Below, in pieces: positions 1 through 6,051 of a DNA stretch of 24,239 bases (the stretch's first letter is position 1; every line of letters begins with the position of its first letter). Where the stretch lies: the IMG/VR virus record IMGVR_UViG_3300020044_008468, positions 1 through 24,239 of that record; one strand, given 5' to 3'. The notes beneath the pieces were generated by a model. It did not search any database, was not told where the DNA came from, and saw only the letters and a list, made by a program, of their open reading frames with translations. This DNA is from a virus. Lineage: Duplodnaviria; Caudoviricetes. Both the position numbers and the translations under genes were made by a program.

Positions 1-195
1 AGGAGCGATCTCCTCCGCTTGTGGCAGTTCGCGACCGGGGAGGTCATCTCGGACGGACGGAGATGCTCGGTTTGTCACGGCGATGGCGCAAGCGAGAGCC
101 AAAACGAGGTTCCCGAGTATCGACAATGCTCCTCGTGCGGAGGTCTTGGATGGGATGTCCTTCCGACGGCTTGGCAACGATACTCCGACGAGTAG
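1..195 (+). CDS. 5'-truncated protein with DnaJ-type zinc finger (two CxxCxGxG motifs)
   Basis: Not in ORF track (no start in window). Frame 1 reads ...RRCSVCHGDGASESQNEVPEYRQCSSCGGLGWDVLPTAWQRYSDE then TAG at 193-195. Confidence 0.75.
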   Translation, partial: RSDLLRLWQFATGEVISDGRRCSVCHGDGASESQNEVPEYRQCSSCGGLGWDVLPTAWQRYSDE

Positions 196-253
196 GAGGG
201 TAGTGGCGAGCAAATCCAAGATTCGGATATCATTGCGAGCACGGAGGCTCGCA

Positions 254-1078
254 ATGAAAACTCGCATGATGTCGGCTCGATGTTGTTGCGGTCCCGGTCC
301 GTCACCGACATGCGATCCGATCAACGGTTATTTCGACGTTTTCGACGCGTTTTCGTCGGTCCCGGCGCAATTTCCATTGGTCACCGGGAGATGGAATCTT
401 ACGCAAGAGCCGGGAACTCTCGTCACCGCAAGCGCGGGAAAAGTCCGGATCGATCATTCTGGACTTTCGTTTCCGCAAACCGGAAACACGATCCTAGAGC
501 GTTGTGCTATCTGGGACACGTTTGAGCATGGAGGATCTTGGCCGACGACGTCCGGGATCCAATTGCGATTGAATTACCAATGGAGCAATGGAAGTTATTC
601 GCTCGACGGCCAACTCTTTGAGTCGGTGGGCGCATATCCCGATATTGCGGAGCTCTATTACGATTTGCTCTCGGGATCTTTTCGACAACGGACATTTGTT
701 CGAGCTCGTCTCGCTTACACAACCGGAGTTGGATGGAGGCATCGATTTGAGTTTGTCGATGCCTCCTCAAGCCCGGTTGTTTCCGTCACCGCGACGACGG
801 CAGTATTTTCGACATCGCGATTTTTGCCGCTCAACTCGACATTCTCGCATTCGCTCGTGATGGCCGTTGCGCCGCTGCCGTCGCAAATCTGGTTCGCTCA
901 AGACGACTCGGACAATCTCATCTACAACGAGCTCCGCGACTTGGCGCATGCCGTCTCGCCGGCCGGCGTCGCCGATGCTTGGGAGCACTTCTTGAAGCCC
1001 TACCCGGAGAAGCGATCGCTCGGCTTCACCTCGTTCGACAAAGACGGAGCGATTCTTCAAGAATACTTTCCGAGCTAA
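254..1078 (+). CDS. Hypothetical beta-rich protein with N-terminal CCC motif, resembles a phage tail-tip/receptor-binding protein
   Basis: GGAGG 243-247 before ATG 254 (in-frame GTG 203 is an alternative). MKTRMMSARCCCGPGPSPTC followed by Trp/Tyr/Thr/Ser-rich sequence. The track start at 83 overlaps the Zn-finger gene. Confidence 0.6.
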   Translation: MKTRMMSARCCCGPGPSPTCDPINGYFDVFDAFSSVPAQFPLVTGRWNLTQEPGTLVTASAGKVRIDHSGLSFPQTGNTILERCAIWDTFEHGGSWPTTSGIQLRLNYQWSNGSYSLDGQLFESVGAYPDIAELYYDLLSGSFRQRTFVRARLAYTTGVGWRHRFEFVDASSSPVVSVTATTAVFSTSRFLPLNSTFSHSLVMAVAPLPSQIWFAQDDSDNLIYNELRDLAHAVSPAGVADAWEHFLKPYPEKRSLGFTSFDKDGAILQEYFPS

Positions 1079-1110
1079 GGAGTCGCGCTCGCGGCAATGT
1101 GATCACTCAA

Positions 1111-1134
1111 AACGCTTGGCTTCGGCCAAGCGTT
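1111..1134 (+). other. Perfect 10-bp hairpin with C(UUCG)G tetraloop (copy 1)
   Basis: AACGCTTGGC-TTCG-GCCAAGCGTT. No U-tract follows on +. Homologous to 2490-2513. Confidence 0.8.
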
Positions 1135-1139
1135 ACCAC

Positions 1140-1162
1140 AAACGAAAGGGATGAGCAATGCA
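1140..1162 (+). repeat. Duplicated leader/RBS/start element (copy 1)
   Basis: AAACGAAAGGGATGAGCAATGCA; matches 2161-2184 except for one extra A there. Confidence 0.85.
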
Positions 1163-1370
1163 GGTGATTGGACGGATTGTGCTAAATGCCGCCGGGAGCT
1201 CGCGCACGATTGAATGGAGCATCGTGCTCCAAGAGTTTCCCGAATACCGGCTCTTCGGCTATGAGATCAAGGAGGGGGACCGAGTCGTCTGGTCGTTGAT
1301 CGGCCATGAGACGCTTGAGCGAGTTTGGGAGGACGCGATCGCTCAATTGAGCAAATTGAAGAAGTTCTAG
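1158..1370 (+). CDS. Small hypothetical protein (70 aa)
   Basis: ATG within the repeated leader. Its TAG stop overlaps the first base of the ribozyme. Confidence 0.75.
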   Translation: MQVIGRIVLNAAGSSRTIEWSIVLQEFPEYRLFGYEIKEGDRVVWSLIGHETLERVWEDAIAQLSKLKKF

Positions 1371-1432
1371 CCGAAACGCCTCTTGCGAGGCGTCATGTCC
1401 GGATTGACCTCCGGCGTCTGACGAGGCAGGTT
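1370..1432 (+). ncRNA. Type II hammerhead self-cleaving ribozyme with loop I/3'-tail pseudoknot
   Basis: GCC(1370-72) GAAA(1373-76); stem III ACGCCTC-ttgc-GAGGCGT; cleavage triplet GTC 1392-94; stem I ATGtCCGG-attgacct-CCGGCGT; core CTGACGA 1418-24; GGC 1425-27 closes stem II; loop GACCT 1406-10 pairs with AGGTT 1428-32. All catalytic-core nucleotides are present. Confidence 0.93.
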
Positions 1433-1467
1433 CCTCGAATCACTTCTTTGCTCAGGAGCTTTTAACC

Positions 1468-1734
1468 ATGCCAACTGGCCGTACAAACTGGGTGACTCGC
1501 CACATATTCACGGTTCCCATCCTCCACCGAGAGGTCGCCGCAGACCTCGTCGGAGACTTCGTGTCGGATCACAAGCTGAAGGTAGACGCAGAGTGGCATT
1601 ACTCGCCCAATGGCGACCTCGCGCATCTCTGGGTGACGGGCTCTCGGGCCTCGCTCCAGCGAATAGAGGATTATGCCGCTGGGTATCAACTCGGCTACGA
1701 CAAAGGCTACGACCTCGGATGCAAATTGGGTTGA
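1468..1734 (+). CDS. Small hypothetical protein (88 aa), probable distant paralog of 2180-2464
   Basis: AGGAG RBS 1454-58. LWVTGSRASLQRIEDYAAGY motif. C-terminal GxxxG repeats (GYQLGYDKGYDLG). Confidence 0.8.
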   Translation: MPTGRTNWVTRHIFTVPILHREVAADLVGDFVSDHKLKVDAEWHYSPNGDLAHLWVTGSRASLQRIEDYAAGYQLGYDKGYDLGCKLG

Positions 1735-1765
1735 GACGCACAACACCAACGAAAGAAAAAGAACG

Positions 1766-2029
1766 ATGTCTGATTTTACGACGATTCAATTGACCGGCGG
1801 ATGCCTCGGCAGCGACACGATGGAAGTTCGGTGCGTGTTATCGCGAGCCGAAGCTCCCGTCCAAGTGGACTACCATGAAGGCAATGGATGGGAATTCACG
1901 CAATTTCAGGGAGGCGATTGCCGAGGCCGAGTTTCCGCATTGGTCGCGATCGCTCGCGGCCTCGCGGCTCATGCCGTTGGCGCGAGCGAAGAGGAGGCCA
2001 ATGCTTGCACTTGGATCGTGCTCCCATAG
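1766..2029 (+). CDS. Small hypothetical protein (87 aa)
   Basis: ATG 1766 (MSDFTTIQLTGG) after an A-rich leader AACGAAAGAAAAAGAACG. The track start at 1673 overlaps the previous gene. Confidence 0.7.
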   Translation: MSDFTTIQLTGGCLGSDTMEVRCVLSRAEAPVQVDYHEGNGWEFTQFQGGDCRGRVSALVAIARGLAAHAVGASEEEANACTWIVLP

Positions 2030-2060
2030 CGGGATTTGGTGTCTCCGAGTCGGGCTCCGG

Positions 2061-2130
2061 AAAAAAAGTCCCAAATACTTCCAAAAATGGTCCCATTTGG
2101 GATTGCCGACGTCCGATACCTTGATATCAT
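2061..2130 (+). promoter_or_regulatory. sigma70-like promoter with A-rich upstream element and operator-like repeats
   Basis: -35 TTGCCG 2103-08, 16-nt spacer, -10 TATCAT 2125-30. Upstream A-tracts. TCCCAAAT 2069-76 is inverted to ATTTGGGA 2095-2102. Lies in the longest intergenic gap of the window. Confidence 0.55.
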
Positions 2131-2160
2131 GGAAGAGTCGGAGCGAGAAACCAACAACCG

Positions 2161-2184
2161 AAACGAAAAGGGATGAGCAATGCA
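2161..2184 (+). repeat. Duplicated leader/RBS/start element (copy 2)
   Basis: AAACGAAAAGGGATGAGCAATGCA, compare 1140-1162. Confidence 0.85.
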
Positions 2185-2464
2185 AGATGAAATGATCGAA
2201 GGTTTGGCTTACGTTAGCGGCATGGATAGCGAATCGGAATGCCGGCTGATTACAACGGCTTTGATCGGCCTTCGTGATAGTGGCGAGGCGAGTCTTTGGT
2301 TCGATCTCCTCGTCGTCGGGACAACGGCTGGTCCCAGCAAGACGGTGATCACGCTTCAGGTTCGCGGAGCCACTCGCCGCGACTTGGATCTCATGCGGAT
2401 GTATGTTCACGGCTGGAGGACGGCGCGACGGCTCTCGGCGATGTCCGAAGCCGCGATCAAGTAG
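2180..2464 (+). CDS. Small hypothetical protein (94 aa)
   Basis: ATG in the repeated leader. LQVRGATRRDLDLMRMYVHGW resembles the motif in 1468-1734. Confidence 0.75.
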   Translation: MQDEMIEGLAYVSGMDSESECRLITTALIGLRDSGEASLWFDLLVVGTTAGPSKTVITLQVRGATRRDLDLMRMYVHGWRTARRLSAMSEAAIK

Positions 2465-2477
2465 GCGAGTCGGCTCC

Positions 2478-2527
2478 GCTCTTGGCAACAACGCTCGGCT
2501 TCGGCCGGGCGTTGTTTGCCGGAGAGC
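2478..2527 (+). other. Long hairpin with C(UUCG)G tetraloop (copy 2)
   Basis: Core AACGCTCGGC-TTCG-GCCGGGCGTT 2490-2513, extended by GCTCTTGGCAAC / GTTTGCCGGAGAGC pairing. Confidence 0.8.
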
Positions 2528-2575
2528 ACAAGCAACGTCACGAGCTCTAGTTTTTTTAACCGAAGGAGAGACAAA

Positions 2576-2944
2576 ATGAAGATGAAGCTCGAAACGATCA
2601 AAGGCAATTACGAGTCGGAGTCGTTGCGCGATTTGCGCGAATGGCTCGAAACGCATCAACCGGCATTCGCGACGATCCTCGTATGGTCGCGGGATCGCGA
2701 AGTCTACGAGCAAGCCAACTTGCGCGATGACCTCCCGGTCACCGAGGCGTTGATCGATGCGATTGCTCAAATCGTGCTCGATGTTTACGATTCCGGCGAA
2801 TACGAGGGGGACAACGAGATGCCTCATCGCCTTTGCTTCCATCAAATCGCGGCTCGTCTGGAGCGAACCCTAGAAGAGTCCGATCCAGACGACATTGAGA
2901 CGGCGATTCGCTTCGCCGGCCATGATTTGCATCGCGAAGTCTAG
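2576..2944 (+). CDS. Acidic hypothetical protein (122 aa)
   Basis: AAGGAG 2563-68 before ATG 2576. Confidence 0.75.
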   Translation: MKMKLETIKGNYESESLRDLREWLETHQPAFATILVWSRDREVYEQANLRDDLPVTEALIDAIAQIVLDVYDSGEYEGDNEMPHRLCFHQIAARLERTLEESDPDDIETAIRFAGHDLHREV

Positions 2945-2949
2945 TAACT

Positions 2950-3027
2950 TGCTCCGCATTCAAGCGGAGCGGTAATGCAAAGCCGGCTTGCATCCTTGTG
3001 GACGCAAGCCGGCTTGGTTTGTTTGCA
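2950..3027 (+). other. Intergenic double stem-loop upstream of the RHH gene
   Basis: GCTCCGC-attcaa-GCGGAGC, then AAGCCGGCTTGC-atccttgtggac-GCAAGCCGGCTT, with outer TGCAAA/TTTGCA complementarity. Confidence 0.6.
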
Positions 3028-3047
3028 GACACAAAAGGAGAGAACTT

Positions 3048-3230
3048 ATGCAACGGTTGGCGATCAAAGTCTACTTGGTATCAAATCTCTTGAAGGCTCT
3101 TCGAGCCGATGCCAAGGCATCCAAGACGACGGTTCAAGCCGTTATTTTGGCTTGCCTAGCAACGCACTATGGGATCGATGTCCCGGCTCCGGTGCGCGGC
3201 CGGCCGTCAAAAAAGGTTGTGAAGCGATAA
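3048..3230 (+). CDS. Ribbon-helix-helix (CopG/Arc-like) DNA-binding protein with C-terminal RGRP motif
   Basis: AAGGAG 3035-40, ATG 3048. 60 aa: beta strand AIKVYL, helix SNLLKALRADAKAS, turn KTT, helix VQAVILACLATHY, then VRGRPSKK. Confidence 0.7.
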   Translation: MQRLAIKVYLVSNLLKALRADAKASKTTVQAVILACLATHYGIDVPAPVRGRPSKKVVKR

Positions 3231-3247
3231 GCAATAGGAGGACTTTC

Positions 3248-3505
3248 ATGAACAGCGAAGACAAAATGCGGCTCGTCGCTTTGCGCAGCATCGAGCGAGC
3301 AAGCCGCTCGATCTTTTCATCGATCGAATCGATCGCGGGAATTTTGCACGAAATGCCGGCCTTGGAGGACATCACCGACGAGGAGCGGCAACTCATCGAC
3401 TCCGCGAGCGCATGGATATCGCTCGCGCCATTCTTGGTCGAGAGCCGGATCCGCAAGTCGTTTGCGGCGAAGCTCGGCAAATCCCTGAACGCAAAGCCCG
3501 ATTAA
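3248..3505 (+). CDS. Small helical hypothetical protein (85 aa)
   Basis: AGGAGG RBS before ATG 3248. Stop overlaps the stop of the convergent gene (TTAA 3502-05). Confidence 0.75.
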   Translation: MNSEDKMRLVALRSIERASRSIFSSIESIAGILHEMPALEDITDEERQLIDSASAWISLAPFLVESRIRKSFAAKLGKSLNAKPD

Positions 3506-3882
3506 GAGGCCGACGAGGACGCCGAAGCTATCGCGGGCGTGAGCGTTTGGGGCGTCCCAATGCCGGCGAGGCGAAGCGATACCGTCTCGTTGGTTTGCCT
3601 CGTGATGCTCGTGCCTCCAGTTTGAATTTCGATCTCGATCCGACATCCTTGCGGATCGAGGTCTTTTGTTTGGTCTCCCGAGACGGGAACCGACACAATG
3701 CCTTGCGCCCATGATCCATTGCTTGGCTCGGCGATGACCCAAGGGCCGGCAAGATGCCGGCCGGCGATCGAAACGAGCGATGCTCGGACCGTCGCTCCGC
3801 TCGGGATCGAGTAAGCAACTCCGTCGGTTGTGACCAAGACCGAGAGCGGAAGCGTGTCGCCGATATAAAGTATCCTCGTCAT
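3502..3882 (-). CDS. Putative virion protein, BppU-N/Ig-like (126 aa)
   Basis: ATG 3882 overlaps upstream TGA (ATGA). IGDTLPLSVLV...SGATVRASL...IEIEI pattern. Confidence 0.6.
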   Translation of the reverse strand: MTRILYIGDTLPLSVLVTTDGVAYSIPSGATVRASLVSIAGRHLAGPWVIAEPSNGSWAQGIVSVPVSGDQTKDLDPQGCRIEIEIQTGGTSITRQTNETVSLRLAGIGTPQTLTPAIASASSSAS

Positions 3883-4802
3883 ACCAAAACTCCCGCCGGC
3901 CGCGCCGGCTTTCTTGGTGCGGTGAAGCTTGCGCCTCGAATCGAAACGGTAAAAACAGTTTCGATATCTGCGCATAACGCAAAAGTTTGCCGATCGGCGA
4001 CCAAATCCCAATCGAGTCCTCCAGCGACAATTCCCGGAGGCATGACGATTGCGATTGCCGAGGCAACGTCGGCAACAAGAGCTCCACCGATTGCGACTCG
4101 CGGCGATGAAACAGAGCCGCTTGCCAAAATCACCGGAGGGACAAGCGTCACGAGAGATGATGTCGTCGGAGCAATTGCGGCCGCGATCGAGGATACGACG
4201 TCGACCGCGATCGTCATTGAGCCGAGAACATCTGGAGCAATCGCGGTTGCGATGGACGTCGCAAGGCCGGGAATGATCGATCCTTCGAGTCCCAAGTTAA
4301 TCGCGATGATCGCTCCATGCGATTCGATTATTGGAACCGCGATCGAGACGGTCGCTCCGGCGATCGGCTCAATCAAGCTCGACGAGCTCGTGACGATCGG
4401 AGCCGCGATCGAAACGGTCGCTCCGGCGATCGGCTCAATTACACTCGACGAGCTCGTGACGATGGGAGCCGCGATCGAAACGGTCGCTCCGGCGATCGGC
4501 TCAATTACACTCGACGAGCTTATGACAATCGGAGTCGCGATCTGCAACGAGACAAAGATCGGCACGAGTCCCGAACCCTGCCAACAAGCGAGCGAGCTAT
4601 CTTGCCAATTGATTAAATCGCCGGCTTGATCGCTCCACTCGGGCTCCGGCAAATATTTGACGCCGGCGACAACGACCGGAACTTGGAGCGAAATTGCAAA
4701 ATTGGATGCCGGAGCGAGCAAGCTCGCCGAGCTTGCAATTACGGGAGCCGTTATCGTTTGAGGCGTCGCGGTCTCGATCGCGACGCGAAGAATTCGTCTC
4801 AT
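3879..4802 (-). CDS. Ala/Ser/Ile/Val/Pro-rich repeat protein (putative fibre/virion protein)
   Basis: ATGA-coupled at both ends. 22-aa repeats SSSSVIEPIAGATVSIAAPIVT. Confidence 0.7.
   Translation of the reverse strand: MRRILRVAIETATPQTITAPVIASSASLLAPASNFAISLQVPVVVAGVKYLPEPEWSDQAGDLINWQDSSLACWQGSGLVPIFVSLQIATPIVISSSSVIEPIAGATVSIAAPIVTSSSSVIEPIAGATVSIAAPIVTSSSSLIEPIAGATVSIAVPIIESHGAIIAINLGLEGSIIPGLATSIATAIAPDVLGSMTIAVDVVSSIAAAIAPTTSSLVTLVPPVILASGSVSSPRVAIGGALVADVASAIAIVMPPGIVAGGLDWDLVADRQTFALCADIETVFTVSIRGASFTAPRKPARPAGVLV
4337..4542. repeat. 66-bp tandem repeat, about 3 near-identical copies (in-frame)
   Basis: Units start at 4337, 4403 and 4469 (ccgcgatcgaracggtcgctccggcgatcggctcaat...). 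Confidence 0.92.
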
Positions 4803-5500
4803 CGGCGCGTATACCCTATTCCTCGTTGCGAAGCCAGCAATCGTATTTCTTCGACGTCCAACATTCGCTGCCGAATCGAAACATCATCGATCGCGCCGGT
4901 AAACGGCGAAACTTGAGATCCAGAATCTCGCCTCGCGCCGATGCACAAAACAGATTGATTCTGAGCAACAATCGTCGAATTGCTTGTTGATGCGACGAGA
5001 GCTCCATCGATCCACAATTGTGCAATGCCTCTTGCACGCGATCTTTGAGCGACAATGTGATGCCAGCCCCAAGAGTATGCCGACGACGTCTGAACAATCG
5101 TCGAATTTATCCAGTTAGCGGTGATTGAGTCGTTCGTGTTCTGGAAAAGCCGAAAAAAGACTCCGGTTGTCCCGATCGACATCGGAATTCGATTCGCGGT
5201 TTGGAATTGGGTTTGAAGCCAAATCGAGATCGAGATCGTGTTTGGCTCGCAAGCAAACGTAGGGAACGCAAACCCTCCGTTTGTCGCTTCGAGAAAATAG
5301 ATCGTCGGCAAGCCGTTCTCGATCGTCCACCTCGACGGCAGATAGTTTGTGGCGATCGATACTTGGCTTGTAATGTGATCCCACAAGCGCGATCCGCTAT
5401 GTCCAAGGCATGGAGCCGTCGCGAAGATGCAATCCGCCCATAGGCTCGGGTAAGCCGAGTCTTCCGCGATCCCATAATCGGCGTACGAGGGGATCATCAT
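4799..5500 (-). CDS. LamG / concanavalin-A-like lectin domain protein
   Basis: TISISIW, WHHIVAQR, LWIDGALV, LCIGAR, FTGAIDDVSI...LDVEEIRLL motifs. Confidence 0.88.
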   Translation of the reverse strand: MMIPSYADYGIAEDSAYPSLWADCIFATAPCLGHSGSRLWDHITSQVSIATNYLPSRWTIENGLPTIYFLEATNGGFAFPTFACEPNTISISIWLQTQFQTANRIPMSIGTTGVFFRLFQNTNDSITANWINSTIVQTSSAYSWGWHHIVAQRSRARGIAQLWIDGALVASTSNSTIVAQNQSVLCIGARRDSGSQVSPFTGAIDDVSIRQRMLDVEEIRLLASQRGIGYTRR

Positions 5501-6051
5501 GTCTCCGAAACTTGCACTCGACGAGGGATTACCAAAATGCGACTATCGTTGTTTGCTGGAGTCCCCTCGGTTTTTATCGCGACTCCAAGCGAATTTCGCA
5601 CAACGGCCACAACATATCGTCCTCGAGGCCTCCAAATCACCGGAGCTTGCCGAAGAATCTTATCGGCCTCGGGAGTTGCCACTAAAACGCAAGCCGCCGG
5701 ACCGAGAAGAGGCAACGCTTGTGCGAGCGTCGCGGCCGTTTGCGCGGAAGGAGGATATGCTCCGTCGCCTCCGGTAACAAAGCCCGGCCAAATCGAATTA
5801 TCGTTGCTAGAAATTAACCAGAGCTCGCAAGTGTTTCCCGCCGTCGGAGCGGTTCCGGTCGCGGTCTCTACTCGGAAATAGACAATGTATTCGTCGCTAA
5901 ATGATTCGCCGAGATCCGCCGAGGCCGACATTCGAGCCGAACCAGAAGCAAGCCCATTAAGCGAAAGCGAATGAGTTACATCCGTAGCGGTTGGCTCGCC
6001 AAAGACATATTCTGGGCCTTGCTTGACGTCGATAAAATCGGGGAGAGCCAT
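5497..6051 (-). CDS. Hypothetical phage virion protein (184 aa)
   Basis: Clean ORF in the operon, GGAG RBS, ATGA coupling, beta-rich (TAPTAGNTCELWL). Confidence 0.7.
   Translation of the reverse strand: MALPDFIDVKQGPEYVFGEPTATDVTHSLSLNGLASGSARMSASADLGESFSDEYIVYFRVETATGTAPTAGNTCELWLISSNDNSIWPGFVTGGDGAYPPSAQTAATLAQALPLLGPAACVLVATPEADKILRQAPVIWRPRGRYVVAVVRNSLGVAIKTEGTPANNDSRILVIPRRVQVSET

Follow-up and report, generated by a model that had tools for sequence, protein, structure and literature searches.

Self-cleaving ribozymes occur between short phage genes, and their purpose there was described as undefined in a 2019 review (PMC6765202). The closest described arrangement is that of clustered type II hammerheads, which flank single, non-constant prophage genes, including the anti-restriction gene ardA, and whose cleavage has been shown; processing of a long transcript by the clustered ribozymes was proposed in the same work (Perreault et al. 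2011, PMC3088659). The hyperplastic regions of T4-type phages carry about 50 homologous, recombining repeats per genome, the PeSLs (Arbiol et al. 2010, PMC2839356), and in archaeal viruses blocks of early anti-defence genes were found via shared promoters (PMC11065993). Here we describe an array of seven small open reading frames (ORFs) and their spacers, at positions 1079-3505 of a 24,239-nt virus record (Caudoviricetes; IMG/VR record IMGVR_UViG_3300020044_008468; the whole stretch is called the window below). Genes and signals in this array, among them a hammerhead ribozyme, are probably reshuffled at gene boundaries.

The locus shares features with each of these systems. Like the clustered prophage hammerheads (RF02276), it has a type II ribozyme with a pseudoknot between loop I and the 3' tail, placed between variable phage genes. 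Unlike them, it has one ribozyme rather than two or more around one gene, a promoter and hairpins occupy its other slots, all seven of its proteins are unrecognised, and its cleavage is predicted. Like PeSL cassettes, it has a sigma70-like promoter, AT-rich upstream sequence, a stem-loop, and a Shine-Dalgarno sequence before an ORFan (2053-2184), together with terminator-like stem-loops and modular shuffling among close relatives. In contrast to the PeSL regions, there is one promoter block in 24 kb and two short two-copy repeats, the clear joints lie away from the repeats, and a ribozyme is present. The structured spacers between cistrons recall the polycistronic transcripts of T7 (PMC6938266), but the hairpins here are rather terminator-like and the predicted cutting is by a ribozyme. 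Finally, the archaeal-virus blocks also place small unrecognised genes under a strong, conserved promoter and have small regulators close by; the window comes from a bacterial phage, and no anti-defence homology was found for its ORFs.

A layout of small genes punctuated by promoters, ribozymes, and hairpins is already known from other phages. What this locus adds is natural variants: the same hammerhead heads different genes, and the element in front of an ORF3-family gene changes from phage to phage, being a hammerhead, a promoter, or a small hairpin. Such variants suggest that the ribozyme serves as an insulator or message-end device of general use and does not regulate one specific gene. 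A promoter class and an unnamed protein family also come to notice here, in Planctomycetota-type phages that have been little studied and whose host in this case is probably uncultured. Literature searches, with most subscription papers outside their reach, found no paper on hammerhead ribozymes in Planctomycetes phages, and a multi-term query on ribozymes and ribosome binding, from 2021 onward, found none.

Probable reshuffling of genes and signals at gene boundaries

Positions 1079-3505 are the variable small-gene region of a tailed phage. The seven + strand ORFs encode proteins of 70, 88, 87, 94, 122, 60, and 85 aa and start at 1158, 1468, 1766, 2180, 2576, 3048, and 3248; for ORF3, ORF5, ORF6, and ORF7 the start is the ATG downstream of a ribosome-binding site. 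An initial annotation, made from the sequence alone, had described seven ORFs of 60-122 aa separated by element-bearing spacers, and all of the ORFs and named elements were found. Its statement that most spacers carry a distinct element is true overall, with the 17-nt ORF6-ORF7 spacer carrying none. The "cloned leaders" it described come down to one 18-nt repeat in two copies, the remaining leaders being merely A-rich. The features, all on the + strand, are as follows.

254..1078: upstream gene A, 274 aa, frame open from 83; no family match
1111..1134: UUCG hairpin 1; 10-bp stem, not followed by a + strand U tail
1145..1162: leader/ribosome-binding repeat, 18 nt, copy 1, from repeat comparison
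1158..1370: ORF1, 70 aa; stop codon overlaps the hammerhead start; no family
1369..1435: type II hammerhead, RF02276 match, predicted cut after 1394
1468..1734: ORF2, 88 aa; no family match
1735..1765: A/C-rich leader, unstructured by folding
1766..2029: ORF3, 87 aa; member of an unnamed family; model confident but without a fold match
2053..2144: promoter block; -35 at 2103-2108, CCGAT at 2113-2117, -10 at 2125-2130
2167..2184: leader/ribosome-binding repeat, 18 nt, copy 2, from repeat comparison
2180..2464: ORF4, 94 aa; no family match
2479..2528: UUCG hairpin 2; 8-bp core at 2492-2511, then 5 U in 8 nt
2576..2944: ORF5, 122 aa; in one homologue, a fusion with a second small protein of the arrays
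2950..3015: double stem-loop; second stem 2980-3015, then 5 U in 8 nt, terminator-like
3048..3230: ORF6, 60 aa; tentative ribbon-helix-helix (RHH) DNA-binding protein
3248..3505: ORF7, 85 aa; overlaps the stop of a convergent - strand gene
3647..3661: hairpin followed by a T run, terminator-like, within the convergent gene

Close relatives of the window were contigs from four of nine listed runs, belonging to four studies, aligned to positions 1-4800 at likeness 80; parts of the window without contig cover carry no weight, and no single piece spans the region. Among these relatives, gene content varies, as the initial annotation had anticipated. In run X1, position 1085 is joined to 1369: hairpin 1, the leader, and ORF1 are gone, and gene A directly adjoins the hammerhead. 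In run X2, position 1436 is joined to 1775 via a different leader, which removes ORF2 and places the hammerhead before ORF3. Run X4 is reordered, with the end of ORF5 leading into hairpin 2 (2938 to 2491), hairpin 2 into the promoter block (2517 to 2053), and different sequence 3' of the promoter. ORF2 is preceded by other leaders in X1 and X2, and after ORF6 both runs contain additional sequence that includes a T run. Loose contig ends were examined in 24 of 43 cases, 18 of them within 1079-3505. Nearly all of the long ones (at least 40 letters; 8 of 9) lie in spacers or at most 20 nt from an ORF end, against an expected 36% (p 0.002). The breaks fall at spacers, with ORF1 or ORF2 missing and ORF5, hairpin, and promoter reordered.

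Several points weigh against this reading. Each deletion joint rests on one contig, the short side of which measures 29 nt in one case and 27 nt in the other (likeness 80), and joints with such short sides can come from other organisms or from repeats. Breaks at spacers are expected anyway if spacers diverge faster than genes. In addition, ORF3 and ORF5 homologues were found on contigs of matching size in two cases (4040 and 2575), which suggests that the linkage of ORF3 and ORF5 is kept in two relatives.

The further claim that the repeats serve as exchange sites found no clear support. Both clear joints (1085/1369 and 1436/1775) lie away from the repeated leader and the repeated hairpin, at module edges, so the repeats are not shown as drivers of exchange. 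Two other joints, 1160 to 2971 and 2144 to 1140, touch the leader repeat but are ambiguous.

A type II hammerhead with an intact core

The hammerhead was aligned to RF02276 over its full length (1-66 of 66) at 1369-1435, with 34 bits against a gathering score of 37 and an E value of 1.8e-4; at the gathering threshold, Rfam does not report it. The core is intact and in type II order, with every core position matched in the alignment. Stems I and III, both closed by loops, are present in the predicted fold, and the alignment shows an open stem II of 3 bp. Pairing is possible between loop I (1404-1409) and the tail at 1429-1432, and the window allows a 5-bp pseudoknot; alternatively, the tail (1429-1435) is able to pair with the Shine-Dalgarno region of ORF2 (1454-1460). 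The anatomy of the ribozyme was computed directly, and with its core, stems, and pseudoknot we take the hammerhead of the initial annotation to be real despite a score below the cut-off. The same ribozyme search gave no signal in any of 14 control genomes. It returned one match in the record, which is about 69% complete, and no second hammerhead.

How ordinary is this position? A pattern derived from the window matched at least 127 viral stretches with 131 distinct cores, the window's own included; these sequences are not phylogenetically independent. Positions were counted for the 128 hammerheads with enough flank, the window's included, among the matches listed. In 113 of the 128, the hammerhead lies within 20 nt after a same-strand stop (17 on the opposite strand; 10% at random places), and an ORF starts 8-70 nt downstream in 111 (opposite strand 29; random 34%). 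The median length of the downstream ORF is 83 aa among the 87 ORFs that end in the locus, and 12 loci have two or three distinct hammerheads. A loop I/tail pseudoknot is possible in 84% of 82 relatives, compared with 40% when partners are shuffled. Because positions are so stereotyped among these listed viral hammerheads, the layout of stop, hammerhead, leader, and small gene is common. The position of the hammerhead here is therefore ordinary, and the layout was described in 2011. One other locus (L229, contig range 16789-24832) has four hammerheads with the window's tail leading unrelated genes, one of which is HNH nuclease-like by eye.

Promoter, leaders, and hairpins

The spacer before ORF4 holds both of the elements initially assigned to it, a promoter (CCGA pattern at 2103-2130) and the leader repeat (2167-2184). 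The promoter block has an A-rich upstream part and a 10-bp inverted repeat that abuts the -35. A 6-bp inverted repeat marks its ends (2054-2059 and 2139-2144), and the flanks differ in relatives; a promoter variant in run X3 retains the -10 and CCGAT. Computed directly, the sigma70-like pattern with CCGA occurs once in the window (2103-2130). Of 18 ORF3-family loci, 10 have it on the sense strand and none on the opposite strand. This count is tempered by the fact that the pattern was built from the window and 4 of its 10 matching loci, while the remaining loci include near-duplicates. A generic promoter scan alone was at chance level (2 found, 1.5 expected). Across loci, CCGA(T) stands between or beside the hexamers, often within an inverted repeat, and this promoter class may represent a host-specific promoter element or an operator half-site. 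A short motif led by GAGTCG occurs at 1080, 2047, 2135, and 2467, closely following three stops and, in the remaining case, at the predicted transcription start; the hexamer itself is counted 25 times on the + strand, so this recurrence may not be significant.

The leader repeat is best seen as a favored ribosome-binding sequence because loci of the L021, L029 type have it before a major tail gene. We considered and rejected the leader as a mobile element: a 16-nt pattern had 32 viral matches, about as many as expected by chance, and most of these are not followed by a long ORF. The first ATG of the leader repeat also opens an overlapping frame of 20 codons (1151-1213) that contains a CxxC motif; the frame at the second copy ends after 5 codons, so this one is probably incidental.

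Compared with shuffled sequence, the ORF4-ORF5 and ORF5-ORF6 spacers are strongly folded (z -3.6 and -5.2), and whole-spacer folding was not significant in the other five spacers tested (z -1.3 to +1.1). The UUCG hairpins had been described as conserved, and this agrees with what we found. The window has 35 C(UUCG)G sites on both strands, and only those at 1111-1134 and 2479-2528 have stems of at least 10 bp; the two differ at three places, with pairing kept in all (one double change, one wobble). The core of hairpin 2 can be extended to a long imperfect stem (-33.1 kcal/mol), and by its sequence the hairpin is terminator-like or RNase III-like. Elsewhere, the hairpin pattern matches exactly at three loci, two of them identical, and T runs follow these hairpins at gene ends. 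Further downstream, the hairpin with a T run at 3647-3661 is likely to mark the end of the + strand unit. As terminators, hairpin 2 and the second stem of the double stem-loop have two weaknesses: both U tails are broken by G, and a terminator scan, which returned 7 sites compared with 5.0 in shuffles, omitted both hairpins.

Proteins of the array

PHROGs, Pfam, NCBIfam, and PADLOC gave no significant match for any of the seven ORFs. No family or fold match pointed to the host-takeover or anti-defence function proposed in the initial annotation, and the best structural hit of ORF3 (Z 4.5) was within noise; judged by position alone, an anti-defence function is plausible, as in the archaeal-virus blocks (PMC11065993). 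ORF3 and ORF5 have full-length homologues. A profile search with ORF3 recovered 100 representatives at E of 0.001 or below, a few of them repeat-driven, and Pfam matched none of the 42 family members tested. The model of ORF3 is confident (pLDDT, predicted local distance difference test, 89), yet the fold search returned nothing under E 0.001 and no usable Atlas match.

None of the other six ORFs stands alongside the ORF3 homologue in any of 19 loci. What precedes the homologue differs: in L164 it is a type I hammerhead, whereas L165, L166, L167, and L173 have a promoter there and other loci small GC-rich hairpins. At the gathering threshold, Rfam had no match in these 19 loci, and at E up to 1 it had one hammerhead in the 12 loci searched. 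Three loci (L168, L169, and L175) have in common a short GC-rich element about 30-70 nt upstream of the homologue. It occupies the slot of the hammerhead of L164, has no Rfam match, and could form an H-type pseudoknot by eye; related hairpins occur in L171 and L176-L180. In one ORF5 homologue, the fusion partner is a protein that L167 encodes as a separate gene (46% over 72 aa), so small-gene arrays draw from a common pool. Among eight array neighbors chosen by eye as likely DNA binders, five have helix-turn-helix matches.

ORF6 had been called an RHH regulator, and we retain this call tentatively. Its language-model feature score against RHH clusters is 0.91-0.92, with a TM (template modelling) score of 0.5-0.6 (Atlas), which would suit a small DNA-binding regulator of the RHH type; the resemblance is confined to such features. 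Its single-sequence model has two helices. Speaking against the assignment, ORF6 has no hidden Markov model (HMM), PDB, or Foldseek match, and its model is poor (pLDDT 63).

Wider scans had little to add. When viral contigs were scanned with one protein at a time, neither ORF3 nor the capsid protein led to a relative; isolated phages gave no match, and a genome scan gave one weak 25-residue match, which was not used. The 184-aa gene at 5500-6051 has homologues in 44 loci, with a best-segment identity of 45-56%; within these loci, where at most 10 kb on each side was covered, we found none of the seven ORFs and, by pattern, no hammerhead.

How the region may be expressed

We consider it probable that the region combines two or more transcription units, one ribozyme cut, a promoter, leaky terminators, autoregulation, and shuffling. 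It would be a fast-changing accessory region, probably read early by the host RNA polymerase, in which each small gene sits behind an interchangeable signal. The signals would be the hammerhead, the promoter, hairpins that stabilise the message or resemble terminators, and plain A-rich leaders. ORF1-3 would be transcribed from upstream. The hammerhead would make one cut, after 1394; the ORF1 message would then end in a 3' hairpin, the ORF2-3 message would begin with a hairpin bearing a 5'-OH, and the cut may uncouple the decay and translation of the two. 5'-OH ends and terminal hairpins protect RNA, and the new ends here would presumably be protected in the same way. ORF4-7 would be transcribed from the promoter at 2103-2130, with leaky terminators after ORF4 and ORF5 stepping expression down toward ORF6, and ORF6 probably represses this promoter. 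Cleavage in vivo, early timing, termination, autoregulation, and the functions of the proteins are what we infer here.

The initial annotation had instead proposed a polycistronic RNA cut into units by self-cleavage and stem-directed processing. Taken to its full extent, this is one long transcript cut to gene-sized units by the hammerhead and RNase III, as in the early region of T7, whose transcripts are RNase III-processed (PMC6938266). The hammerhead is real, the extended stem of hairpin 2 would suit such processing, and hairpin 1, which lacks a U tail, is not an ordinary + strand terminator. However, there is an internal promoter, two hairpins are U-tailed, and only one hammerhead was found, all of which make a single stem-cut RNA less likely. 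Moreover, matches to the hairpin pattern elsewhere carry terminator-like T runs at gene ends, hairpin 1 has just 10 bp, and in two relatives ORF6 is followed by an additional insertion that contains a T run. We regard the one-transcript explanation as unlikely.

A broader proposal, to which we give still less credence and call quite unlikely, concerns a phage type II hammerhead subfamily whose tail is both pseudoknot and anti-Shine-Dalgarno strand. It would form a portable, cleavage-coupled translation switch; in Planctomycetota phages, early host-interaction proteins from a common pool would carry a number of exchangeable headers, this switch among them, and within that pool the ORF3 family may have an uncatalogued fold.

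The narrower form, in which the hammerhead doubles as a translational switch and sets ORF2 output as its tail pairs with either loop I or the ORF2 Shine-Dalgarno sequence, is very unlikely in our view. Eight contiguous pairs are possible between the tail and the ribosome-binding region in the window. In 11 hammerheads with the same tail, the ribosome-binding region is less accessible, with a mean unpaired value of 0.44, compared with 0.68 in 109 others (p 3e-4). The pattern used to select these 11 includes the pyrimidine tail itself, which builds in most of the difference; they were also drawn from few genomes, and the folding ignores pseudoknots. Among unselected hammerheads, tail pairing of at least 6 bp was seen in only 2 of 61, and the mean was 3.34 compared with 3.47 for shuffled partners. 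We therefore rejected anti-Shine-Dalgarno pairing as a general feature of hammerheads.

That the signals merely ride on DNA scraps in neutral turnover, with ribozyme and genes of little matter to the phage, would fit the absence of an annotated function for any ORF and the leader-pattern matches elsewhere, mostly not at plausible gene starts, but it is extremely improbable given a hammerhead with intact core, stems, and pseudoknot, an ORF3 that belongs to a conserved family with a confident fold, and full-length homologues of both ORF3 and ORF5.

Setting of the array in the phage record

The window is the entire linear virus record. On the - strand, from 3502 to 24222, lie the terminase, portal, head protease, capsid, major tail, and tape-measure genes, and the + strand small ORFs converge on this virion block. 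The host is probably a member of the Planctomycetota, judging by names among the 120 listed homologues of the 5500-6051 gene: three are named Planctomycetota or Planctomyces, and one Alphaproteobacteria.

Gene A has a CCC motif near its start, and its coding strand is opposite to that of the virion genes. The motif may be that of tail-region genes in such phages. The sequence upstream of 892, in the gene A region, is different in runs X2 and X3. Strong hairpins lie within coding regions at 730-775 and 3520-3720; a 60-nt folding window at 721 has a z of -7.8, and several stems lie just 3' of ORF7. Three 66-nt tandem repeats occupy 4330-4542, inside a 307-aa gene on the - strand.

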